In this document: piece after piece, positions 6,453-60,953 of the stretch
How the letters are laid out: each line of letters begins with the position of its first letter
Position numbering within the stretch: position 1 is the stretch's first letter
NCBI GenBank assembly: GCA_934394585.1
Contig: CAKRQU010000007.1
Location: forward strand, 3,343 to 67,342
Source of the DNA: an uncultured Eubacteriales bacterium
GTDB lineage: Bacteria > Bacillota > Clostridia > Oscillospirales > CAG-272
Reading direction: 5' to 3'
Length of the DNA: 64,000 bases
Notes under the pieces: generated by a model
What the model saw: only the letters and a program-made list of their open reading frames with translations
Databases searched by the model: none
What the model was told of the DNA's origin: nothing
Translations under genes and position numbers: made by a program

Positions 6453-7379
6453 ATGGTTAAATTAAGCAAAAAATTTCCGATAATCGCTGGCATTGCGGGC
6501 GTTTTGCTTTTCTTTATAGTGCAGATCGTTACGTCACTCGCGGTTTACGGAATAAAAAAGCCGGAGTATCTTTCCACGCTCATAATAGATCTCGCCTGCA
6601 CTGTGCTGGGAGTGGTGCTGATACTTGTCTGCGGGCTGGGCGATATTTTCAAAAATCATCGTGAAAGCTTTTTGCGCGGGCTCGGCACGGGCGGATTTTT
6701 TATATTTGTTTCGGCGTCGTCGCTTGTCATTCTGATAAGCAGCGCAGAAAGCCGAACGCCGCTTTCCTCTACGGAAATAGCGGTTTTCGTGCTTGCTATG
6801 GTGGCTATCGGTTTCGCGGAGGAACTTATTTTCCGCGGATTTGTTTCGGAAATAATATTCCGCAAATACGGAAATGATTTCTGCGGAGTGTGGTTTTCGA
6901 CGATTGTTTCGAGCCTGATTTTCGGCGCCGCGCATCTCGTGAATGCGTTTTCCTCGGATTTCGGCGGTGTCGTGATACAGTCGGCAGGCGCTTTTGCCAT
7001 GGGCTTGGGCTTTACGGCGGTTTATTACAGGACGCGTAACGTGTATGTCACGGCGGCGCTGCATGCGTTTATGGATTTTGCGGCGCTTTTTACCACGGGT
7101 GTATTCGGCGACGGAACTATTTCGACCACTGTTTCGTCTTATGACGCCTCAAAGCTGCTGGCAGTGCCGATATATGTGCTTGTCGCCGTCGTATTGCTGC
7201 GCAAACTGAAAATGGCGCGCATACTCGGCAAACCAGGAGATACGCCGCTGACGATGCTGGCAAAGCTTTCGTCTTCGGAAAAGTCGAAAAAGCGCCTGAA
7301 ATGGCTGCTCGTCGGCATTGCGCTCACGGCGATAGCCGTCTATGCTTTTTACATTATAAAAGCAGCGTTGAATTTCTGA
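6453..7379 (+). CDS. CPBP family intramembrane glutamic endopeptidase (CAAX protease-like)
   Basis: Multi-TM protein with the EELIFRGF motif, FGAAHL and a later HAFMDF motif. Confidence 0.85.
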   Translation: MVKLSKKFPIIAGIAGVLLFFIVQIVTSLAVYGIKKPEYLSTLIIDLACTVLGVVLILVCGLGDIFKNHRESFLRGLGTGGFFIFVSASSLVILISSAESRTPLSSTEIAVFVLAMVAIGFAEELIFRGFVSEIIFRKYGNDFCGVWFSTIVSSLIFGAAHLVNAFSSDFGGVVIQSAGAFAMGLGFTAVYYRTRNVYVTAALHAFMDFAALFTTGVFGDGTISTTVSSYDASKLLAVPIYVLVAVVLLRKLKMARILGKPGDTPLTMLAKLSSSEKSKKRLKWLLVGIALTAIAVYAFYIIKAALNF

Positions 7380-7395
7380 TATAGAAAAAAGAAGA

Positions 7396-7425
7396 AGCCA
7401 TCGGGTTTGCCCGACGGCTTTTTTC
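7396..7425 (+). terminator. intrinsic terminator of the CPBP gene
   Basis: GCCATCGGG-TTTG-CCCGACGGC stem-loop followed by TTTTTT. Confidence 0.8.
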
Positions 7426-7578
7426 TCTTGCCCAAAATGTTTCTTTTCCTTACGAAGGAAACGCGGGTGTACTTTTCTGTGAAGAAAAGTACCAAAAGAA
7501 ATGTTCCTCTTTGCCAAGAGGGGGCGGGCGACTGCGGTCGCCCGAGGTACGATCGCGCTTTTTACTGACAAAAAGCGC

Positions 7579-7998
7579 GGCAAAAGTCATCAAAGGAAGG
7601 CTCCTCGCCCTCCTTTGCAAACTACCTCGCACCCCGTCGAGTTAGCCGCGGAAAGCAATGCGCGGCAAGTATGTGCTATATATAGCAAATCTAAAAATCT
7701 CATGTCTATCTCTTATCACATCATCAGCCATACCGCGCGTGCGAACAAAGTATGCCGCAAAAAGCGAGCAGATTCGACGGGGTGGGTGGCTTCCGCCATG
7801 GCTTTTGATACGTTTCCCACTATAGTCAAAACTCCACCCATTGCGAGCATGACTTGATGGACATCAAGTTGGGGCGGCTAAAGCCAAAATCTGCACAGAC
7901 AAAAGTCCGTGTTAAGCGTGGATTTGAACTGCACTTCCGGTTTAGTCTATGGTTGGACTGTCGGGGCAGTATGTTCGCACGAGTCGCCGCGAGGCGAC
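7579..7998 (+). ncRNA. candidate structured ncRNA core, copy A (family unrecognised)
   Basis: Roughly 80-90% identical by eye to the cores at 13711-14131 and 60338-60757. Frame-breaking indels, conserved stems, terminal GTCGCC-GCGA-GGCGAC GNRA hairpin, long-range complementarities. Confidence 0.45.
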
Positions 7999-8165
7999 AA
8001 AGAAAGAGTTTAAAAGAGGAATTGACACATACGCGCAGCGTGTGTGTCGGCGTCGCCGAGACAGGAGTTAATTCTTTTCTCTTTTTGACTTTTGGTACTT
8101 TTCGTCAGTGAAAAGTACACCTTCGTCCCCTCGCGGGGGACAAAGTAACTTTTGTTTCTTTGCCC

Positions 8166-8199
8166 CAAAAAACGAACACGGGCGGCAAGTGCCGCCCGC
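8166..8199 (-). terminator. intrinsic terminator of the fused ABC gene (lies inside repeat copy A)
   Basis: On the - strand, GCGGGCGGCACTTGCCGCCCGT is followed by GTTCGTTTTTT. It is nearly the same hairpin as the surE terminator at 60888-60918. Confidence 0.75.
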
Positions 8200-8211
8200 T
8201 TCCTTTTCTTT

Positions 8212-11200
8212 TTATTCTGTTCTCAATGCCACTACAGGGTCCTTTTTCGCGGCACTGCGCGACGGGATTATTCCCGATATGAGCGTGAGAAGCATGCTGA
8301 TGCATACAAGTATCACCGCTACCTCGGGTGCAAGGAAGGCATTCAGATTGCCTATCCCCGTGAGCGAATGGAGAATGAGATTTATCGGTATGCAGAGCAG
8401 ATATGTGATAAGCACGCCGAACATACCCGAAGTGAAACCGATTATCACCGTTTCGGCATTGAACATGCCGGAAACATTCTTTTTCGATGCGCCTATAGCG
8501 CGCAGGATACCGATTTCCTTTGTCCTTTCCTGTACGGAAATGAGCGTGATAACACCTATCATTATTGATGAAACCACGAGCGAAACAGCGACAAAAGCTA
8601 TCAGCACATAAGTTATGGCATTTATAATCGTTGTGACGGAAGACATCATCAGTCCGACATAATCGGTATATGTTATTTTGCCCGATTCGTCCTTTCCCGC
8701 ATTGTAGGAATCTATGATGCTTTCAAGCGTTTCTTTATCCGCAAAGGAAGCGGCATAGAGATTTACCGTGGCGGGTTCTTCTTTCTCGGCATAACCGAGC
8801 ATGAGCATTACATCGTCATAGCTCATATCGGAAAATTCCGTTACTTCGGAATAATACTCCGCGCATACCGCATCGGAATATCCCGCACATTCCGCATCGA
8901 GAGCCGCGGCGAGCTGTTCCGCGGGAACAGCGGAAAGACTTGCCTTTACCTGCTGTGCGTATTGCTCCTTTACCCGCTCCGATATTATCTCGCGAAAGAG
9001 CGCTTCCAACTTTTCGCTGCCCATTTCATTTATATATTCGCGGATTTCGTCTTCACCCATGCCTGTTTCCGCGCTCATGGCGGAAACAAGACTTTCCGTC
9101 ATCTGCTCTATGGTCATGGCTGACATGGCTTTTTCCGTGGCGTCATTTACAAATTCCGCTGTCGGAATTGATTTTATTTTTATATAAGCCTCCGCTTTTT
9201 CGCTTGCGGAAAGGGAAGCGATATAATTTCTGAATTTCTCGGCTTTCTGCGCTTCGGAAAGCGAAGATGCGCTTTCCGCAAAGGGAAGCCCCGTGAATAT
9301 ATCCGTATTCGGCGAGGCTTTCTGAGCCTTTACCGCATCGGATTCCGCCGTTTTTTCTATGATATATTCGGTGAGCGCGTGCGTATAGCCTATAGAGCCG
9401 GTTATCATCGGCGAAAGCGCATCTTCCTTCGGGCGGATAATGCCTACTACTTTCAGATCCGTTCCGTTATCGTAGAGATAACGCATGCCCGCATCCGTGG
9501 TACTGATATCATTGTAAAGTCCGCTCGTGCCGCTTTTTGCGTATTTCTGAGCGTCGGTCACCATGCGGAAAGTCATGCCGCAAAGCTCTTCGTAAGACCA
9601 TTTGTATGTTTCTACGGGAAGCTCGGTCTTATTTACGGCGGCTTCCATGATTTTATTTATTTCCTCTTCGGATTTCAGCCCGAGAGCATAAAGCGTGATA
9701 TCATCGATTTCGTTGTTTTTGTCCGCCACGAGGACTATCTGATCATAGCTTGCAGGCCATGAGCCGTATACCAGATCATATTGCTTTTCGAGTAGCGGAT
9801 TTATCATTTTGCCGTTGCTTCCGGAGAGCAATTCCTGCCACGTGCCGAAGGACGACGCGGGCGTGAGGGACGAGAATATTCCCGCATCGGACGACGCGGA
9901 TGTGCCTGCGTTCATCATTGCACTGCCGAAATATTTGGCGAGCAGTTTTCTTGTCAGTTCTTCGGAATCGGAACGGATTATTTTGCCGTCCACATTTTCG
10001 GTATAGACATTCAGAGAGAAATTGTATGTGTACTGCACGCCGGAAAGCGCGGCGTAAAGCTCGCTTTCGGGATCCGCCATCTCTTTTTCTATAAACGAGC
10101 GGAAATCGCGCAGATTGTTGTCGCGCTGACCGATATTGCTCATGGCATTTACAAATTCATACATGGACGGTTTCTGATAAATGCCGTCTTTTTCATGCAA
10201 AACGGATGAGGCGGCAGGCGACATGAAAGTTTTCATCAGATCGCCGAAATCGGTATGCTTTGCCTCTATCGTGAGGGGATAGGAGGAAAGCGTTTCCTCC
10301 TGCACAGCATTTATATAGCTTGTCATGCCTTGTGATACGGCGCATACGAGCGCTATTCCTATTATGCCGATGCTGCCCGCAAATGATGTGAGCACGGTTC
10401 TGCCTTTTTTGGTGAACAGATTTTTGAGCGAAAGCATGAAAGCCGTGGAAAAAGACATGGACGGCTTTTTCTTTTGCTTTTTGCCCTTTGCGCTCTGAAT
10501 ATCCGCGCTGTCCTTTTCGTGCTCGGCAACGGTTTCCGCCTCGGAAAGCGGTTTTGTATCTCCGATGATTTCGCCGTCGAGCATGCGGATTATGCGCGAG
10601 GAATATTTTTCGGCAAGCTCGGGATTGTGAGTTACCATTATTATAAGGCGGCTCTCGGAAATTTTTTTCAGGATTTCCATCACCTGTATGCTCGTTTCCG
10701 TATCGAGCGCGCCCGTAGGCTCGTCGGCGAGGATTATTTCGGGATCGTTTACTAGGGCGCGCGCTATGGCTACGCGCTGCATCTGACCGCCCGACATTTC
10801 CGCGGGCTTTTTGTGAAGCTGATTTCCCAGTCCCACTTCCTCGAGCGCTTTTATCGCGCGGGATTTGCGCTCCGCTTTCGGTATTCCGGAAAGAGCGAGC
10901 GAAAGCTCCACGTTTTGCAGTACGCTCTGATGCGGGATCAGATTATAGCTCTGAAAAACGAAGCCTATGGAATGATTGCGATAGGCGTCCCAGTCGCGAT
11001 CGCGGAAATCCTTTGTTGATCTGCCGTTTATTGTGAGATCGCCCGAGGTATAATGATCGAGCCCGCCTATGATATTCAGCAGGGTGGTTTTTCCGCATCC
11101 TGACGGACCGAGAACCGAAACAAATTCGCTTTTGCGGAAAGCGAGATTTATACCGCGCAGCGCTTTTACCGTCATATCTCCCGCACAGTAATTTTTTTTG

Positions 11201-13593: not shown

Positions 13594-13612
13594 TTTGCAT
13601 TTTATGCATAAT

Positions 13613-13640
13613 AGGGCGGCTTTTGCCGCCCTTATTTTTT
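13613..13640 (+). terminator. intrinsic terminator of tsf
   Basis: AGGGCGGC-TTTT-GCCGCCCT followed by TATTTTTT. It shares the GGGCGGC/GCCGCCC stem with the terminators at 8166-8199 and 60888-60918. Confidence 0.85.
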
Positions 13641-14442
13641 ATTTTTGCGGGAGGGTGGGTACTTTGTCCCCTATGGGGAAGCGATCGCGCTTTTGAGTGA
13701 CCAAAAGCGCGGCAAAAGTCATCAAAGGAAGGCTCCTCGCCCTCCTTTGCAAACTACCTCGCACCCCGTCGAGTTAGCCGCGGGAAGTAATGCGCGGCAA
13801 GTATGTGCTACATATAGCAAAACGAAAAAGCTTTTGTCTATCTCTCCGCGTATCATCAGCCATATCGCGCGTGCGAACAAAGTATCCCGCAAAAAGCGAG
13901 CAGATTCGACTGGGGTGGGTGGCTCCACGCCGAAAGTTTAGCTACACTTCTCACTGTAGGCTAAACTCCGACTGCGCGAGCATGGCTTGATGGACATCGA
14001 AACGGAGCAACTATAGTTCTGATTTGAGCAGGCAAAAGTCCGTGTTAAGCGTGGGTTTGAACCGCGCTTCCGGTTTAGTCTACGATGGGACTGTCGGGGC
14101 AGTATGTTCGCACGAGTCGCCGTGAGGCGACAGAAGGAGATGAAAAGAGGAATTGACACATACGCGCAGCGTGTGTGTCGGCGTCGCCGAGACAGGAGTT
14201 GCCTTCCTCTTTTTGACTTTTGGTATACTCCGTCTCGGCGACGCCGTTCAGAGGTGGCTCCGCCACCCTGAACCCTCCTCTTGGTCACGCAAAAGTACAC
14301 CTTCGTCCCCTCGCGGGGGACAAAGTAACTTTTTGATACTTTTTTACAAAAAAGTATGCCTGCCGCCACTCCCCGCAGTGGAGATTCTTTTCCCGCTTTT
14401 CTGCGGGAAGAAAAGCACACCCTCACGCAGGGACAAAAAATC
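13641..14442 (+). repeat. composite non-coding repeat element, copy B; ends approximate
   Basis: Same core and flank modules as copies A and C. Adds a perfect 15-bp stem (14179-14193 / 14232-14246) and a GGTGGC-TCC-GCCACC module. Confidence 0.85.
13711..14131 (+). ncRNA. candidate structured ncRNA core, copy B
   Basis: Aligns end to end with 7579-7998. The terminal hairpin loop is GTGA (still GNRA). The variable domain is replaced by the 8-bp hairpin AGTTTAGC/GCTAAACT (13935-13967). Confidence 0.45.
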
Positions 14443-14508
14443 CAGTATTCTATATAATATAAGTGCGGAAAAACATTCTGCACTTATTTTTATATTGGAG
14501 TGATTGAG

Positions 14509-16598: not shown

Positions 16599-16673
16599 GC
16601 TGGTGTGGCTCAATGGCAGAGCAGCTGATTTGTAATCAGCAGGTTGATGGTTCGACTCCGTTCACCAGCTCCA
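16599..16673 (+). tRNA. tRNA-Thr (anticodon UGU), CCA encoded
   Basis: Cloverleaf folded by hand: acceptor GCTGGTG/CACCAGC, anticodon loop TT-TGT-AA, T loop TTCGACT. Confidence 0.9.
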
Positions 16674-16676
16674 TAC

Positions 16677-16761
16677 GGGAGCGTTCCCGAGCGGCCAAAG
16701 GGGGCAGACTGTAAATCTGTTGTCACTGACTTCGGTGGTCCGAATCCACCCGCTCCCACCA
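16677..16761 (+). tRNA. tRNA-Tyr (anticodon GUA), long variable arm, CCA encoded
   Basis: Acceptor GGGAGCG/CGCTCCC, anticodon loop CT-GTA-AA, T loop TCCGAATCC region. Confidence 0.9.
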
Positions 16762-16797: not shown

Positions 16798-16811
16798 GCC
16801 CTAATGGGATT

Positions 16812-16897
16812 TGGTGCGCTTTTTGTCAGTAAAAAGCGCGATCGTACCGCGGGCGACCGCAGTCGCCCGCCCTTTCTCTCGGCAGAGAAAGAAACAT
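16812..16897 (-). repeat. solo fragment of the repeat-element flank (hairpin modules only, no core)
   Basis: The reverse complement matches 7497-7578 of copy A: TCTC..GAGA hairpin, GGGCGGGCGACTGCGGTCGCCCG hairpin, and CGCGCTTTTT-ACTGAC-AAAAAGCGCG hairpin. Confidence 0.8.
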
Positions 16898-16901
16898 TGC
16901 A

Positions 16902-22195: not shown

Positions 22196-22269
22196 TGGAG
22201 CAGGCGACGGGAATCGAACCCGCGTATTCGGCTTGGGAAGCGGACACTCTGCCATTGAGTTACGCCTGC
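22196..22269 (-). tRNA. tRNA-Gly (anticodon CCC), CCA encoded
   Basis: The reverse complement folds as a cloverleaf: acceptor GCAGGCG/CGCCTGC, anticodon loop TT-CCC-AA, T loop TTCGATT. There is one C.C mismatch in the anticodon stem. Confidence 0.8.
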
Positions 22270-22301
22270 AAAAAAAGCTCCGCTTTTTGCAGAGCTTTTC
22301 A

Positions 22302-22377
22302 TGGAGCTGGTGATGTGACTCGAACACACGACCTGCTGATTACGAATCAGCTGCACTACCGACTGTGCTACACCAGC
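22302..22377 (-). tRNA. tRNA-Thr (anticodon CGU), CCA encoded
   Basis: Reverse complement: acceptor GCTGGTG/CACCAGC, anticodon stem-loop GCTGA-TTCGTAA-TCAGC, T loop TTCGAGT. Confidence 0.9.
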
Positions 22378-29233: not shown

Positions 29234-29290
29234 TTGCGCATTGTATCAAACAGAAACTCCGACAGATTTTAAACGCTGTCGGAGCTTTTG
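29234..29290 (+). repeat. 57-nt hairpin repeat (copy 1), inverted copy at 40871-40927
   Basis: TTGCGCATTGTATCAAACAGAAACTCCGACAG-loop-CTGTCGGAGCTTTTG. The stems are identical to the reverse complement of 40871-40927 and the loops differ. Confidence 0.75.
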
Positions 29291-40870: not shown

Positions 40871-40927
40871 TCAAAACTCCGACAGCGCTCAAAGGCTGTC
40901 GGAGTTTTTGTTTGATACAAAGCGCAA
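40871..40927 (-). repeat. 57-nt hairpin repeat (copy 2), acting as a bidirectional terminator between convergent genes
   Basis: AAAACTCCGACAG-loop-CTGTCGGAGTTTTTG. The reverse complement aligns with 29234-29290. Confidence 0.75.
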
Positions 40928-58802: not shown

Positions 58803-60131
58803 ATGAAAAGATTAATAACTCTTGTTCTTGCACTTGTTCTTTGCCTGTCCGTGCTTGTAGCCTGCGGAAACGAACCCGCCGACACAACTTCAAAGCTCGA
58901 TCTTGCAAAAGAATATCTTTTTACAATGTATAAAAACTCTTCCGAGAAAGTTCTCAGAGATTTTAACCGCGTAAACAAGCTCAATATCGACGGTCAGTCT
59001 TTTGATGTGGAATGGACCGTGGAAATCACAGCCGGCGCCGCAGACAGCGTTAAAGTAGTTGCGGGCGATGGCAATACAGTAACAATAGACGTTACCGAAA
59101 ATCCCGAAGAAGAAATAAAATTCAATCTCGTCGGCACTCTCAAAGACGGCGACAAGACTGAAAAAGTAAGCTTTTCTCACTATGTTCCCGCAGTGGAAAA
59201 GGCAGGCGGCATAGAGCAGGTTAAGGAAGTTAAGGCAGATACCGCTTACAAATTCGGTCTGAAGCAGGGCAATCTTGAAAAAGATCTGTATTTCACAGGC
59301 GAAATGTCCGGCAATTACCTTGCCACCACAGATGATATAACAAAGGCTGTAAGCATATTTGCGGAAGAAGTTGAAGGCGGCTATCGTCTGTACTTCACAA
59401 AGGACGGCGCAAAGACTTATATCGATATCTATGAATACAAAGAGGGCAAAGCAGGCATCCGCCTCACGGCAGAGCCCACAGCAGTATTCACATGGAATAC
59501 AGAACTGAACCTCTTCACGGCAAATGTTATCGGTTCCGACTACTATCTCGGCACATATAATACCTACAATACGATCAGCGCAAGCGCTACGACGTATATC
59601 ACAGGAGACAATGCTTCCAAGATAGGTGTTTCTCAGTTCCCCGCATATCTTTTCACAGTGAAGCTCACAAATACAACTGTAAAAGAGCCTGCAGCAGATA
59701 CAGCTTACAAATTCATGCTCACACAGGGCAATCTTGAAAAAGATCTGTATTTCACAGGTGAAATGTCCGGAAATTATCTTGCTACATCCGAAGATGTGGC
59801 AGCAGCTGTCGATGTATACCTCGAAACAGTTGAAGGCGGCTACCGTCTGTACTTCACAAAGGAAGATGTAAAGACTTATGTCGACATTTATGAATACAAA
59901 GAGGGCAAAGCAGGCATCCGTATCACAGCAGAACCCACAGCAGTATTCACATGGAATGCAGAACTCGGCATTCTCACGGCAAATGTTATCGGTTCCGATT
60001 ACTACCTCGGCACATACAATACCTACAATACGATCAGCGCAAGCTCTACGACGTATATAACTGGCGACAATGCTTCCAAAATAGGCATTTCTCAGTTCCC
60101 CGCATATCTTGTTACCGTTGGTGTAAACTGA
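58803..60131 (+). CDS. lipoprotein with a tandemly duplicated ~141-aa domain, unknown function
   Basis: Lipobox LVAC-GNE. aa 145-285 and 298-438 are near-identical. Confidence 0.8.
   Translation: MKRLITLVLALVLCLSVLVACGNEPADTTSKLDLAKEYLFTMYKNSSEKVLRDFNRVNKLNIDGQSFDVEWTVEITAGAADSVKVVAGDGNTVTIDVTENPEEEIKFNLVGTLKDGDKTEKVSFSHYVPAVEKAGGIEQVKEVKADTAYKFGLKQGNLEKDLYFTGEMSGNYLATTDDITKAVSIFAEEVEGGYRLYFTKDGAKTYIDIYEYKEGKAGIRLTAEPTAVFTWNTELNLFTANVIGSDYYLGTYNTYNTISASATTYITGDNASKIGVSQFPAYLFTVKLTNTTVKEPAADTAYKFMLTQGNLEKDLYFTGEMSGNYLATSEDVAAAVDVYLETVEGGYRLYFTKEDVKTYVDIYEYKEGKAGIRITAEPTAVFTWNAELGILTANVIGSDYYLGTYNTYNTISASSTTYITGDNASKIGISQFPAYLVTVGVN
59235..60116 (+). repeat. in-frame tandem duplication (period 459 nt) inside the lipoprotein gene
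   Basis: 59235-59657 and 59694-60116 align without gaps at high identity. Confidence 0.9.
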
Positions 60132-60150
60132 TAGAATAAGCACAAAAATA

Positions 60151-60180
60151 AAAGAGGGCTTTTTGCCCTCTTTTATTTTT
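60151..60180 (+). terminator. intrinsic terminator of the importer/nuclease operon
   Basis: AAAGAGGGC-TTTTT-GCCCTCTTT followed by a T run. Confidence 0.85.
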
Positions 60181-60337
60181 GCGTATTGGAGTGCAGTTTT
60201 TTCGTTCCCTTCGAGGGGACGGAGGGGTATACTTTTTGCAAAAAAGTATCAAAAAAAGAAGTTACTTTCTCTACCGAGAAACGAGGTCGCGCTTTTCACT
60301 GACGAAGAGGAGGGCTCAAGGTGGCAGAGCCACTTCT

Positions 60338-60757
60338 GTCGCCTCGCGGCGACTCGTGCGAACATACTGCCACGACAGTCCGACCATAGATTAAACCGGA
60401 AGCGCGGTTCAGACCCCCCACTTAACACGGACTTTTGCCTGTTCAGACTTAGGCTTTAGCCGCCCCGTTTCGATGTTCATCAAGCCATGCTCGCTCCGTC
60501 GGAGTTTAGTCTATAGTGGGAAGTATATCAAAAGCCACGGCAGGAGCCAATCCACCCCGTCGAATCTGCTCGCTTTTTGCGGCATACTATGTTCGCACGC
60601 GCGGTATGGCTGATGATGCGCGGAGAGATAGACAAGGGCCTTTTGATTTGCTATATATAGCACTCACTTGCCGCGCATTACTTTTTGCGGCTAACTCGAC
60701 GGGGTGCGAGGTAGTTTGCAATGGAGGGCGAGGAGCCTTCCTTTGATGACTTTTGCC
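60338..60757 (-). ncRNA. candidate structured ncRNA core, copy C
   Basis: 420 nt. The reverse complement is collinear with 7579-7998. Terminal hairpin GTCGCC-GCGA-GGCGAC. It lacks the ~115-nt X module found 3' of cores A and B. Confidence 0.45.
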
Positions 60758-60887
60758 GCGCTTTTTGTCAGTAAAAAGCGCGACCCCGTCCACGGGCGAA
60801 CGCAGTCGCCCGCCCCTCTCTTGGTAAAGAGAAACTTCTTTTTGGTACTTTTCGTCAGTGAAAAGTACACCTTCGTCCCCACAGGGA

Positions 60888-60918
60888 CAAAAAAACACGG
60901 ACGGCAGATGCCGCCCGC
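60888..60918 (-). terminator. intrinsic terminator of the surE operon (lies inside repeat copy C)
   Basis: On the - strand, GCGGGCGGCATCTGCCGTCCGT (with a G.U pair only in this sense) is followed by GTTTTTTT. Confidence 0.75.
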
Positions 60919-60953
60919 TTCTTTTTTCTGTGCTTTTTATAAAAAAGCAATTC

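Follow-up and report, generated by a model that had tools for sequence, protein, structure and literature searches.

A composite hairpin-rich repeat in the intergenic regions of uncultured human-gut Clostridia, and its likeness to non-autonomous mobile elements

A stretch of 64,000 nucleotides from the genome of an uncultured Eubacteriales bacterium (contig CAKRQU010000007.1, positions 3,343 to 67,342; hereafter the window) carries three full copies and one fragment (16802-16898, -) of an intergenic sequence. Its ~420-nt core was put forward, in a sequence-only reading, as a candidate novel structured RNA. We find that this core is the interior of a composite repeat of ~0.6-0.7 kb, the ends of which are inverted copies of a ~75-nt two-hairpin unit (a hairpin H1, then CAAAAGTCA, then a hairpin H2). 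The repeat is small, lacks an open reading frame (ORF), is found in many copies at unrelated loci and has terminal inverted repeats at both ends, as expected of a MITE, a miniature transposable element with inverted repeats. On balance, and with some reserve, we favour the reading that the core belongs to the inside of a mobile DNA repeat, rich in hairpins, non-autonomous and of the MITE or REPIN kind, because of the inverted ends, nested modules, truncated copies, occurrence in both orientations, local density, narrow host range and exchange between copies.

Copies in the window

MAFFT, blastn and nhmmer agree in placing copy A at 7545-8005 (+), copy B at 13677-14138 (+) and copy C at 60331-60791 (-). 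The three ~420-nt copies noted earlier are thus at the places given for them, though the similarity is longer and runs past 420 nt at both sides; the 420-nt unit as such is replaced by the inside of a 0.6-0.7 kb inverted-repeat-bounded repeat. Pairwise identity is 86-88% over 460-550 nt (nhmmer E ~1e-168), within the 80-90% that had been estimated by eye, and 84-88% is the range for the ~460-nt sequence itself. The first 80 nt are nearly invariant: a single change separates the three copies there. The gene-free gaps of 0.8-0.9 kb reported around the copies measure 820-910 nt (7380-8211 for A, 13594-14499 for B and 60132-60953 for C). Each copy lies directly past the intrinsic terminator of the upstream gene and in the same orientation as that gene.

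Inverted ends and nested modules

At the 5' end H1 is followed by a fixed linker, GGCAAAAGTCA, and by the purine-rich hairpin H2. H1 is laid out as GCGC or GTAC, TTTT, a loop NNNTGAC, AAAA and the complementary GCGC or GTAC. This 5' unit (model positions 6-82) is repeated, inverted, directly after the 3' terminal hairpin in A and B and also in nine or more copies from metagenomes (L019, L023, L024, L026, L027, L028, L031, L035 and L045). The terminal inverted repeats span ~75-130 nt, the repeat also contains nested mini-modules, and the inverted-repeat arms in single copies are 18-43 nt long and 78-88% complementary; copy A has a 43-nt inverted repeat, 7456-7498 with 8089-8131, that is 84% complementary. 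Outward, the inverted symmetry continues through a hairpin H0 (GGGCGAC..GTCGCCC or GGGCGAAC..GTTCGCCC), GTCCCC..GGGGAC and TTCCTT..AAGGAA. The hairpin GTCGCC-G(C/T)GA-GGCGAC, described as the end of the core, is present in all three window copies (Table 1) but missing from three copies of the second of the two subfamilies defined below.

A 44-nt mini-module splits the inverted H2 (H2') in copies A and B and has no Rfam match. In relatives it sits in the H2 loop (L019, L021, L022), past the linker (L029, L034), in the hairpin after the long-range helix P3 (L023, L035) or in mid-core (L036), making at least five different positions overall. Its flanks are fixed, its hairpin stem covaries and it occurs in either orientation, which gives it the look of a further mobile element, of smaller size, with loops as its targets. 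Because it sits at differing places across copies, the intergenic regions are best described as mosaics in which hairpin modules are nested. The stretch from copy B to asd has extra small hairpin modules at 14335-14445 (for example GATACTTTTTTACAAAAAAGTATG, GCTTTTCTGCGGGAAGAAAAGC and GGTGGCTCCGCCACC) that are absent from the related spacer of L014.

Distribution beyond the window

Collecting homologs from related DNA had been suggested as a check, and it yielded ~20 further human-gut insertions. Scanning metagenome contigs with several patterns yielded 34 loci, every one of human-gut origin, and look-ups of spurious ORFs added two, one of them from a Hadza gut sample. The distinct loci number ~20; their neighbours are unrelated and no protein recurs beside the element. 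In sample ERZ1026780 the element is on six contigs, and at several loci two or three copies occur together. An invariant 17-mer, CAAAAGTCCGTGTTAAG, gave three chance matches only when scanned against one genome each of 185,579 species, blastn found no similar DNA in phage and plasmid collections, and two viral-contig scans were likewise empty.

The copies form two subfamilies, one window-like (subfamily 1) and the other comprising L018-L027, L029 and L031-L040 (subfamily 2). Besides full-length elements, nhmmer recovered truncated forms (model 2-365 and 6-270), 3'-only forms (315-460) and a 326-nt deletion derivative; mosaic, recombined copies occur too, and the contigs L005 and L006 end at the element. 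The host range appears narrow, a single lineage of human-gut Clostridia that are uncultured and form spores, in which the copies occupy intergenic 'safe havens' past terminators. Relatives with SurE proteins 87% and 75% identical in amino acids have no copy near surE, a comparison that is uninformative as to an empty site because synteny differs. The closest named SurE homologue, 60% identical, is from a 'Clostridia bacterium' metagenome-assembled genome.

Beside subfamily-2 copies are GC-rich palindromes tagged with GTAG: GTAG-GGGCGAAC..GTTCGCCC, GTAG-GGGCGGAT..ATCCGCCC and GTAG-GGGTCG..CGACCC. They occur at L019, L022 (e.g. 2949-2975), L023, L025, L029, L031, L035 and L008, often preceded by TTATCTT; in the window copies the related hairpin GGGCGAC..GTCGCCC lacks the tag. 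Overall, GTAGGGG is not over-represented (28 observed, ~39 expected), and it is meaningful in its recurrent context only. A 2013 survey did not report GTAG repetitive extragenic palindromes (REPs) in Firmicutes (PMC3733652); REP-like GTAG palindromes there would widen the known range of such systems.

Orientation and exchange between copies

All three cores had been noted as co-oriented with the gene immediately upstream. This holds in the window but is not general, as 13 insertions are co-oriented and 6-7 are not (genes called with the trained codon model). The tsf-asd spacer, the decisive case, shows both arrangements. Copy B lies there in the sense of tsf, and in L014-L017 and L046 (tsf 98% and asd 84% identical in amino acids) the element is inverted along with the outer hairpin and cut at model position ~365, beside the tsf terminator.

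The position of the copies, between a terminator and the next gene and often between convergent genes, would suit a host-adopted, cis-acting intergenic device like REP and bacterial interspersed mosaic elements (BIMEs), ERIC, BOX or Correia. It might act as a bidirectional terminator or insulator, as a stabiliser of mRNA 3' ends or as a platform for nucleoid proteins. H2' with its T-run in the sense strand, and H2 with ATGACTTTTG in the antisense strand, are terminator-like, and each end could stop outgoing transcription; the recurring short motifs GCGAAC/GTTCGC and GCGAC/GTCGC could be protein half-sites. However, the presence, orientation and completeness of the element vary among close relatives at one locus, the relatives at 75-87% SurE identity are without it, and a terminator needs far less than a 460-nt core. 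We regard a host device of this sort as quite unlikely.

Contig k141_976802, from another sample, equals the window over ~56 kb with one mismatch, except in copy A. There the two differ at 43 positions, 38 of them in 7750-8000 (region 7650-8000 against L004 7200-7550). About half of the 43 differences match B or C and the remainder match no sampled copy, and a donor for the variant 3' half was not found among the copies retrieved. The patch reflects either gene conversion, with an unsampled copy as donor, or a chimera of the assembly, and it suggests exchange between copies. Targeted mutagenesis of the kind driven by diversity-generating retroelements was considered for copy A and rejected, the substitutions being of all types and not adenine-specific.

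Coding potential and known RNA families

That the core is non-coding, as first proposed, is confirmed. Every reading frame is interrupted by indels between the three copies. With a codon model built from 34 of this genome's genes, the core ORFs scored as non-coding while the rpsB and surE controls scored as coding and the genes of the window were recovered, and variable columns lack a period-3 pattern (66/85/82 and 45/51/48). A 118-amino-acid ORF in copy A has just 19 relatives among 5.8 billion proteins. None of the 19 has a Pfam domain, their lengths and coverage are ragged and each is on one to three contigs; they are spurious gene calls on copies of the repeat. Public gene calls also contain a 181-amino-acid 'gene' at 13938-14483 (-) (L041 533-1078), without a Pfam domain and wholly inside copy B's modules; since its score is non-coding, this call too is probably spurious.

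No known RNA family was matched either, whichever strand or subfamily was taken, in agreement with the sequence-only reading. Rfam 15 at the gathering threshold returned four tRNAs and nothing else for the whole window. At E<=10 the core was without a match in 7300-8300 on both strands, and a subfamily-2 copy (L019) was without one at E<=1; 16 related loci gave tRNAs only. None of the 4227 families compared matched the element, among them the covariance models of ROOL, GOLLD, OLE, HEARO, raiA, RNase P, tmRNA, 6S and the group I and II introns. No sigma-70-like promoter was found in 7300-8300.

These results also bear on whether the core is a decayed gene, a remnant of an insertion sequence or a terminator-targeting group II intron of class C without an ORF. 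The position of the copies just past terminators resembles that of class C group II introns, which Robart, Seo and Zimmerly are said to have placed there in 2007, and in copy A one frame is open for 118 amino acids. Yet the Rfam models of group II D1-D4 and D5-D6 and of group I gave no match at E<=10, the 5' boundary has no GUGYG and no 34-nt domain-5-like hairpin is present. Terminal inverted repeats would not be expected of an intron, and the orientation is 13:6-7, not fixed. For a gene remnant, both a coding signal and a protein family are absent; on the broken frames, the codon model and the lack of a protein family, a decayed protein-coding gene or pseudogene is rejected. The alternative as a whole is very improbable.

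Helices and covariation

That the core encodes a true structured RNA of large size, in the sense first proposed and carried by the repeat for its own spread or for use by the host, is a rather unlikely reading. By analogy it might be a guide or ribozyme RNA served in trans (cf. ORF-less group II introns, IS110 bridge RNAs and the omega-RNAs of IscB and TnpB), and it would be new because it matches none of the Rfam families. Evidence for it comes from an alignment, A4, of 36 distinct 5' domains, with partners slid by 1-3 columns and shuffled columns as controls. Its consensus has H1, P3 (a 15-bp long-range helix), P5 (TGCGYGG with CCRCGCG) and small helices, 38 pairs in all, and 99.0% of the cells hold a standard pair against 24-56% in slid controls. 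Pairs changed on both sides number 11 of 38 (0-2 when slid), and the covariation score is 0.278 against 0.125 for shuffled columns and <=0.064 for slid registers. One subfamily split accounts for most of the double substitutions, which leaves few independent events.

P3 illustrates this. It is the first of three long-range complementarities proposed earlier, all of which exist in the window copies, though their conservation beyond it is uneven. In P3 itself ACCCCGTCG/CGACGGGGT of subfamily 1 is replaced by GCGTGCACG/CGTGCACGC in subfamily 2, six compensated pairs and essentially one split; changes within subfamilies are uncompensated (e.g. the C.A of L014, L015, L017 and L046). Pairing (ii), GTGCGAACA/TGTTCGCAC, is uninformative because it never varies, and pairing (iii), CATCAGCCAT/ATGRCTTGATG, fails, with uncompensated breaks in L007-L017. 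In P5 one pair is changed on both sides. H1 (10 bp) has four pairs changed on both sides among the 36 copies, its loop TGAC remaining constant while the stem alternates between GCGC and GTAC. The stem variants of H2 also covary (CAAAGG/CCTTTG, TTAAGAGGG/CCCTCTTAA and ATAAGAGAG/CTCTCTTAT), and H1 and H2 together offer several independent stem variants. A variable hairpin inside P5 keeps its pairing through several different stems within subfamily 2. Throughout, stems covary while loops and linkers are constant.

Maintenance by compensatory change is therefore supported for H1, H2, P3 and P5, and is contradicted for pairing (iii) and for the hairpin described at 7913-7935. The latter starts at 7914, has four mismatches at the L007-L013 locus and is unrecognisable in subfamily 2. 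A 3-bp mini-hairpin that had been cited, GGC-TAAA-GCC replaced by AAC-TATA-GTT, has three compensated variants but broken ones too. The subfamilies also differ in how the 3' domain folds, and in a combined two-subfamily alifold of the full core the 3' half was too noisy.

Strand signal

In RNA under selection G.U pairs are normally tolerated and A.C pairs avoided. This pattern was not seen among pairs predicted on both strands, where G.T and A.C number 33 and 30 in subfamily 2 and 3 and 2 in subfamily 1; G.U pairs, numerous in the plus-strand model, are just as numerous in the minus-strand model. RNAalifold energies are also the same for the two strands in effect: -251.2 (+) and -253.5 (-) kcal/mol for subfamily 2 at full length, -224.3 (+) and -231.0 (-) for subfamily 1 at full length, and -50.7 (+) and -47.1 (-) for the 5' domain of A4. 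The single-copy fold z is -4.05 on the plus and -3.96 on the minus strand, and single-copy hairpin energies on the minus strand are similar or lower. The G.U argument for one sense strand thus does not survive. The GNRA loop of the terminal hairpin is specific to that sense, as claimed, but almost invariant and so of little weight.

A structured RNA is further suggested by the block-wise conservation with its invariant, putatively unpaired motifs, by one-sided U.G<->C.G and A.U<->G.U changes that fit the + strand together with the GNRA tetraloop, and by the place of the window copies and of 13 of ~20 insertions just past a terminator behind a co-oriented gene. Against it, energies and the G.T and A.C counts lack a strand preference, a conserved promoter was not found and the flanks differ between subfamilies. 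Both orientations occur, even at the single tsf-asd locus, many truncated copies persist, and no gene for a reverse transcriptase, IscB, TnpB or an IS110-type protein lies near, in the window or in the retrieved flanks. The breaks in the 7914 hairpin and pairing (iii), and the subfamily-specific 3' domain, tell the same way. Covariation alone is no proof of RNA because mobile DNA repeats show compensatory change too, as documented for the hairpins of REPINs (PMC3116915).

Evidence on mobility

The composite of copy A (706 bp) is bracketed by a direct repeat of 9 bp, TGTTTCTTT (7438-7446 and 8153-8161), a candidate target-site duplication. Several observations weigh against a mobile DNA repeat. 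No target duplication was seen for B or C, the outer boundary being blurred by further modules, and neither the tsf-asd nor the surE comparison gave a clean empty site. No transposase or autonomous copy was found in the 64-kb window and ~300 kb of flanks. The two terminal units of one copy differ from each other, copy A having a GCGC stem in H1 and a GTAC stem in H1'. The 13:7 count leans to co-orientation, and there are sense-only, if weak, features, namely the GNRA loop and an extension of P3 by two G.U pairs that are invariant. Finally, conservation is block-wise, long invariant blocks lying beside variable pairing hairpins, and exceeds that of a decaying MITE; a functional RNA would equally account for it.

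If the repeat is mobile DNA, the conserved hairpins would be cis-acting sites, read as single strands by a transposase or recombinase acting in trans from elsewhere in the genome, possibly of the HUH/RAYT class or of another. Copies that lose their hairpins would cease to multiply, and families would retain pairing through compensatory change, as in REPINs, while copies may swap sequence by gene conversion. RNA from the copies would most likely be read-through from the upstream gene, with the 3' H2' hairpin and the T-run after it as a terminator-like end on the sense strand.

A functional fold of the interior, as RNA or as single-stranded DNA, is conceivable because the interior is long (~460 nt) and its conservation block-wise. 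On this option the 460 nt would be a structured, pseudoknotted nucleic acid, an RNA or a single-stranded DNA intermediate, that directs the copying or targeting of the element near terminators with an enzyme supplied in trans, once per genome. We think this unlikely. If it were so, the 43 changes in copy A would reflect active templated exchange between copies, the interior would be a large structured nucleic acid not known before and linked to mobility, and the element a new kind of non-autonomous mobile element. If the element is a repeat family only, it would be an uncatalogued hairpin-dense mobile repeat of uncultured gut Clostridia that breaks metagenome assemblies, as at L005 and L006, is a source of spurious gene calls such as the 181-amino-acid 'gene', and can mimic structured RNA in covariation screens.

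Comparison with known systems

Like REPINs and REP-BIMEs, in which REP doublets are mobilised by the RAYT tyrosine transposases (PMC3116915, PMC3337134, PMC3733652), the element is extragenic and multi-copy and consists of inverted hairpin units with covarying stems and fixed short motifs, downstream of genes, in clusters or mosaics with small motifs; the GTAG-tagged GC-rich palindromes beside subfamily-2 copies may be a further REP-like feature. For REPINs the proposed reader of the hairpin, in its single-stranded DNA form, is a RAYT transposase (PMC3116915). However, REPINs are ~100 nt long with a short spacer, whereas the 'spacer' here is a 460-nt conserved multi-helix core in a unit of >600 nt, no RAYT gene was seen in the window or retrieved flanks, and the window copies are without a clear GTAG tag.

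Bacterial MITEs and modular repeats (Correia/NEMIS, RUP, BOX, ERIC and bcr1; PMC3184786) share with the element terminal inverted repeats, the lack of an ORF, a length below 1 kb, intergenic location, many copies, truncated and composite forms, nesting and hairpin transcripts upon read-through. They are usually 100-300 nt long, with simple terminal inverted repeats and a defined target duplication. Here, in contrast, the terminal inverted repeats are hairpin pairs with stems unlike at the two ends, a long interior shows conservation in blocks and compensated helices, and the target duplication is only a candidate.

The large RNAs of Rfam (ROOL, GOLLD, OLE, HEARO/omega-RNA and raiA) are similar in length (400-600 nt), in having many helices, in their occurrence in Clostridia or gut metagenomes and in that their function is unknown. 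The element has no sequence or structure match to them, and unlike it they typically exist as one copy or in association with prophages or IscB, and they are fixed in orientation and marked by a clear G.U excess.

Feature coordinates and neighbouring features

Table 1. Features of the repeat in the window.
Feature	Position	Strand	Remark
Copy A, outer left hairpin TTCCTT-ACG-AAGGAA	7446-7460	+	regex coordinates
Copy A, outer left H1-type hairpin GTACTTTTC-TGTGAA-GAAAAGTAC	7469-7492	+	regex coordinates
Copy A, outer left modules, including H2-type hairpin	7446-7543	+	recur around copy C and at 16802-16898
Copy A, H0 hairpin GGGCGAC-TGCG-GTCGCCC	7526-7543	+	regex coordinates
Copy A, H1 GCGCTTTTT-ACTGAC-AAAAAGCGC	7555-7578	+	5' terminal unit 7555-7617
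Copy A, linker GGCAAAAGTCA	7579-7589	+	5' terminal unit
Copy A, H2 CAAAGGAAGGC-TCCTC-GCCCTCCTTTG	7591-7617	+	5' terminal unit
Copy A, core	7618-7998	+	between H2 and end of terminal hairpin
Copy A, P3 long-range helix	7630-7643 with 7771-7784	+	
Copy A, P5 helix	7658-7665 with 7733-7740	+	
Copy A, invariant GTGCGAACA and complement TGTTCGCAC	7739-7747 and 7972-7980	+	
Copy A, variable 3' half	~7790-7960	+	
Copy A, terminal hairpin GTCGCC-GCGA-GGCGAC	7983-7998	+	
Copy A, 3' terminal unit (inverted)	7999-8141	+	
Copy A, H2' arms	~8009-8021 and 8076-8087	+	split by mini-module 8022-8065
Copy A, mini-module, 44 nt (TTGAC-hairpin-GGCGTCGCCGAGACAGG)	8022-8065	+	
Copy A, TGACTTTTG	8086-8094	+	
Copy A, H1' GTACTTTTC-GTCAGT-GAAAAGTAC	8095-8118	+	
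Copy A, outer hairpin GTCCCC-TCGCG-GGGGAC	8125-8141	+	
Copy B with flanks	13666-14321	+	outer hairpins 13666-13680 and 14305-14321
Copy B, H1	13687-13710	+	
Copy B, linker	13713-13721	+	
Copy B, H2	13723-13749	+	
Copy B, P3	13762-13775 with 13903-13917	+	
Copy B, terminal hairpin	14116-14131	+	loop GTGA
Copy B, mini-module	14153-14196	+	in H2' loop
Copy B, inverted linker	14214-14222		
Copy B, second, inverted partial mini-module	14232-14245	-	
Copy C with flanks	60204-60888	-	outer hairpins 60875-60888 and 60204-60220
Copy C, H1-type hairpin	60845-60868	-	
Copy C, H0	60794-60811	-	
Copy C, H1	60758-60781	-	
Copy C, linker	60747-60755	-	
Copy C, H2	60719-60745	-	
Copy C, P3	60693-60706 with 60553-60566	-	
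Copy C, terminal hairpin	60338-60353	-	
Copy C, degenerate 3' inverted unit	60281-60320	-	
Solo terminal fragment, core-less: H1, H0 and H2-type hairpin	16802-16898	-	just past tRNA pair 16599-16758

The neighbouring genes are housekeeping genes of a spore-forming Firmicute chromosome: efp, rpsB, tsf, asd, a murD-like gene, spoIIGA, a sigE-like gene, rpmE, dnaG, rpoD, prfA and surE. Just upstream of the gap that holds copy C, the ORF at 58803-60131 contains a tandem duplication (59235-60118; 459-nt period, 82-89% identity) that encodes two repeated protein domains. Two tRNA gene pairs, at 16599-16758 and 22199-22377, are on opposite strands, and one tRNA of each pair has 60 nt in common with its counterpart, at 82% identity and in inverted orientation. 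A 55-nt inverted pair, 29234-29288 and 40873-40927, is 87% complementary over a distance of 11.6 kb and consists of terminator-like hairpins (AAACTCCGACAG....CTGTCGGAG); it is a separate small repeat family, unrelated to copies A, B and C.

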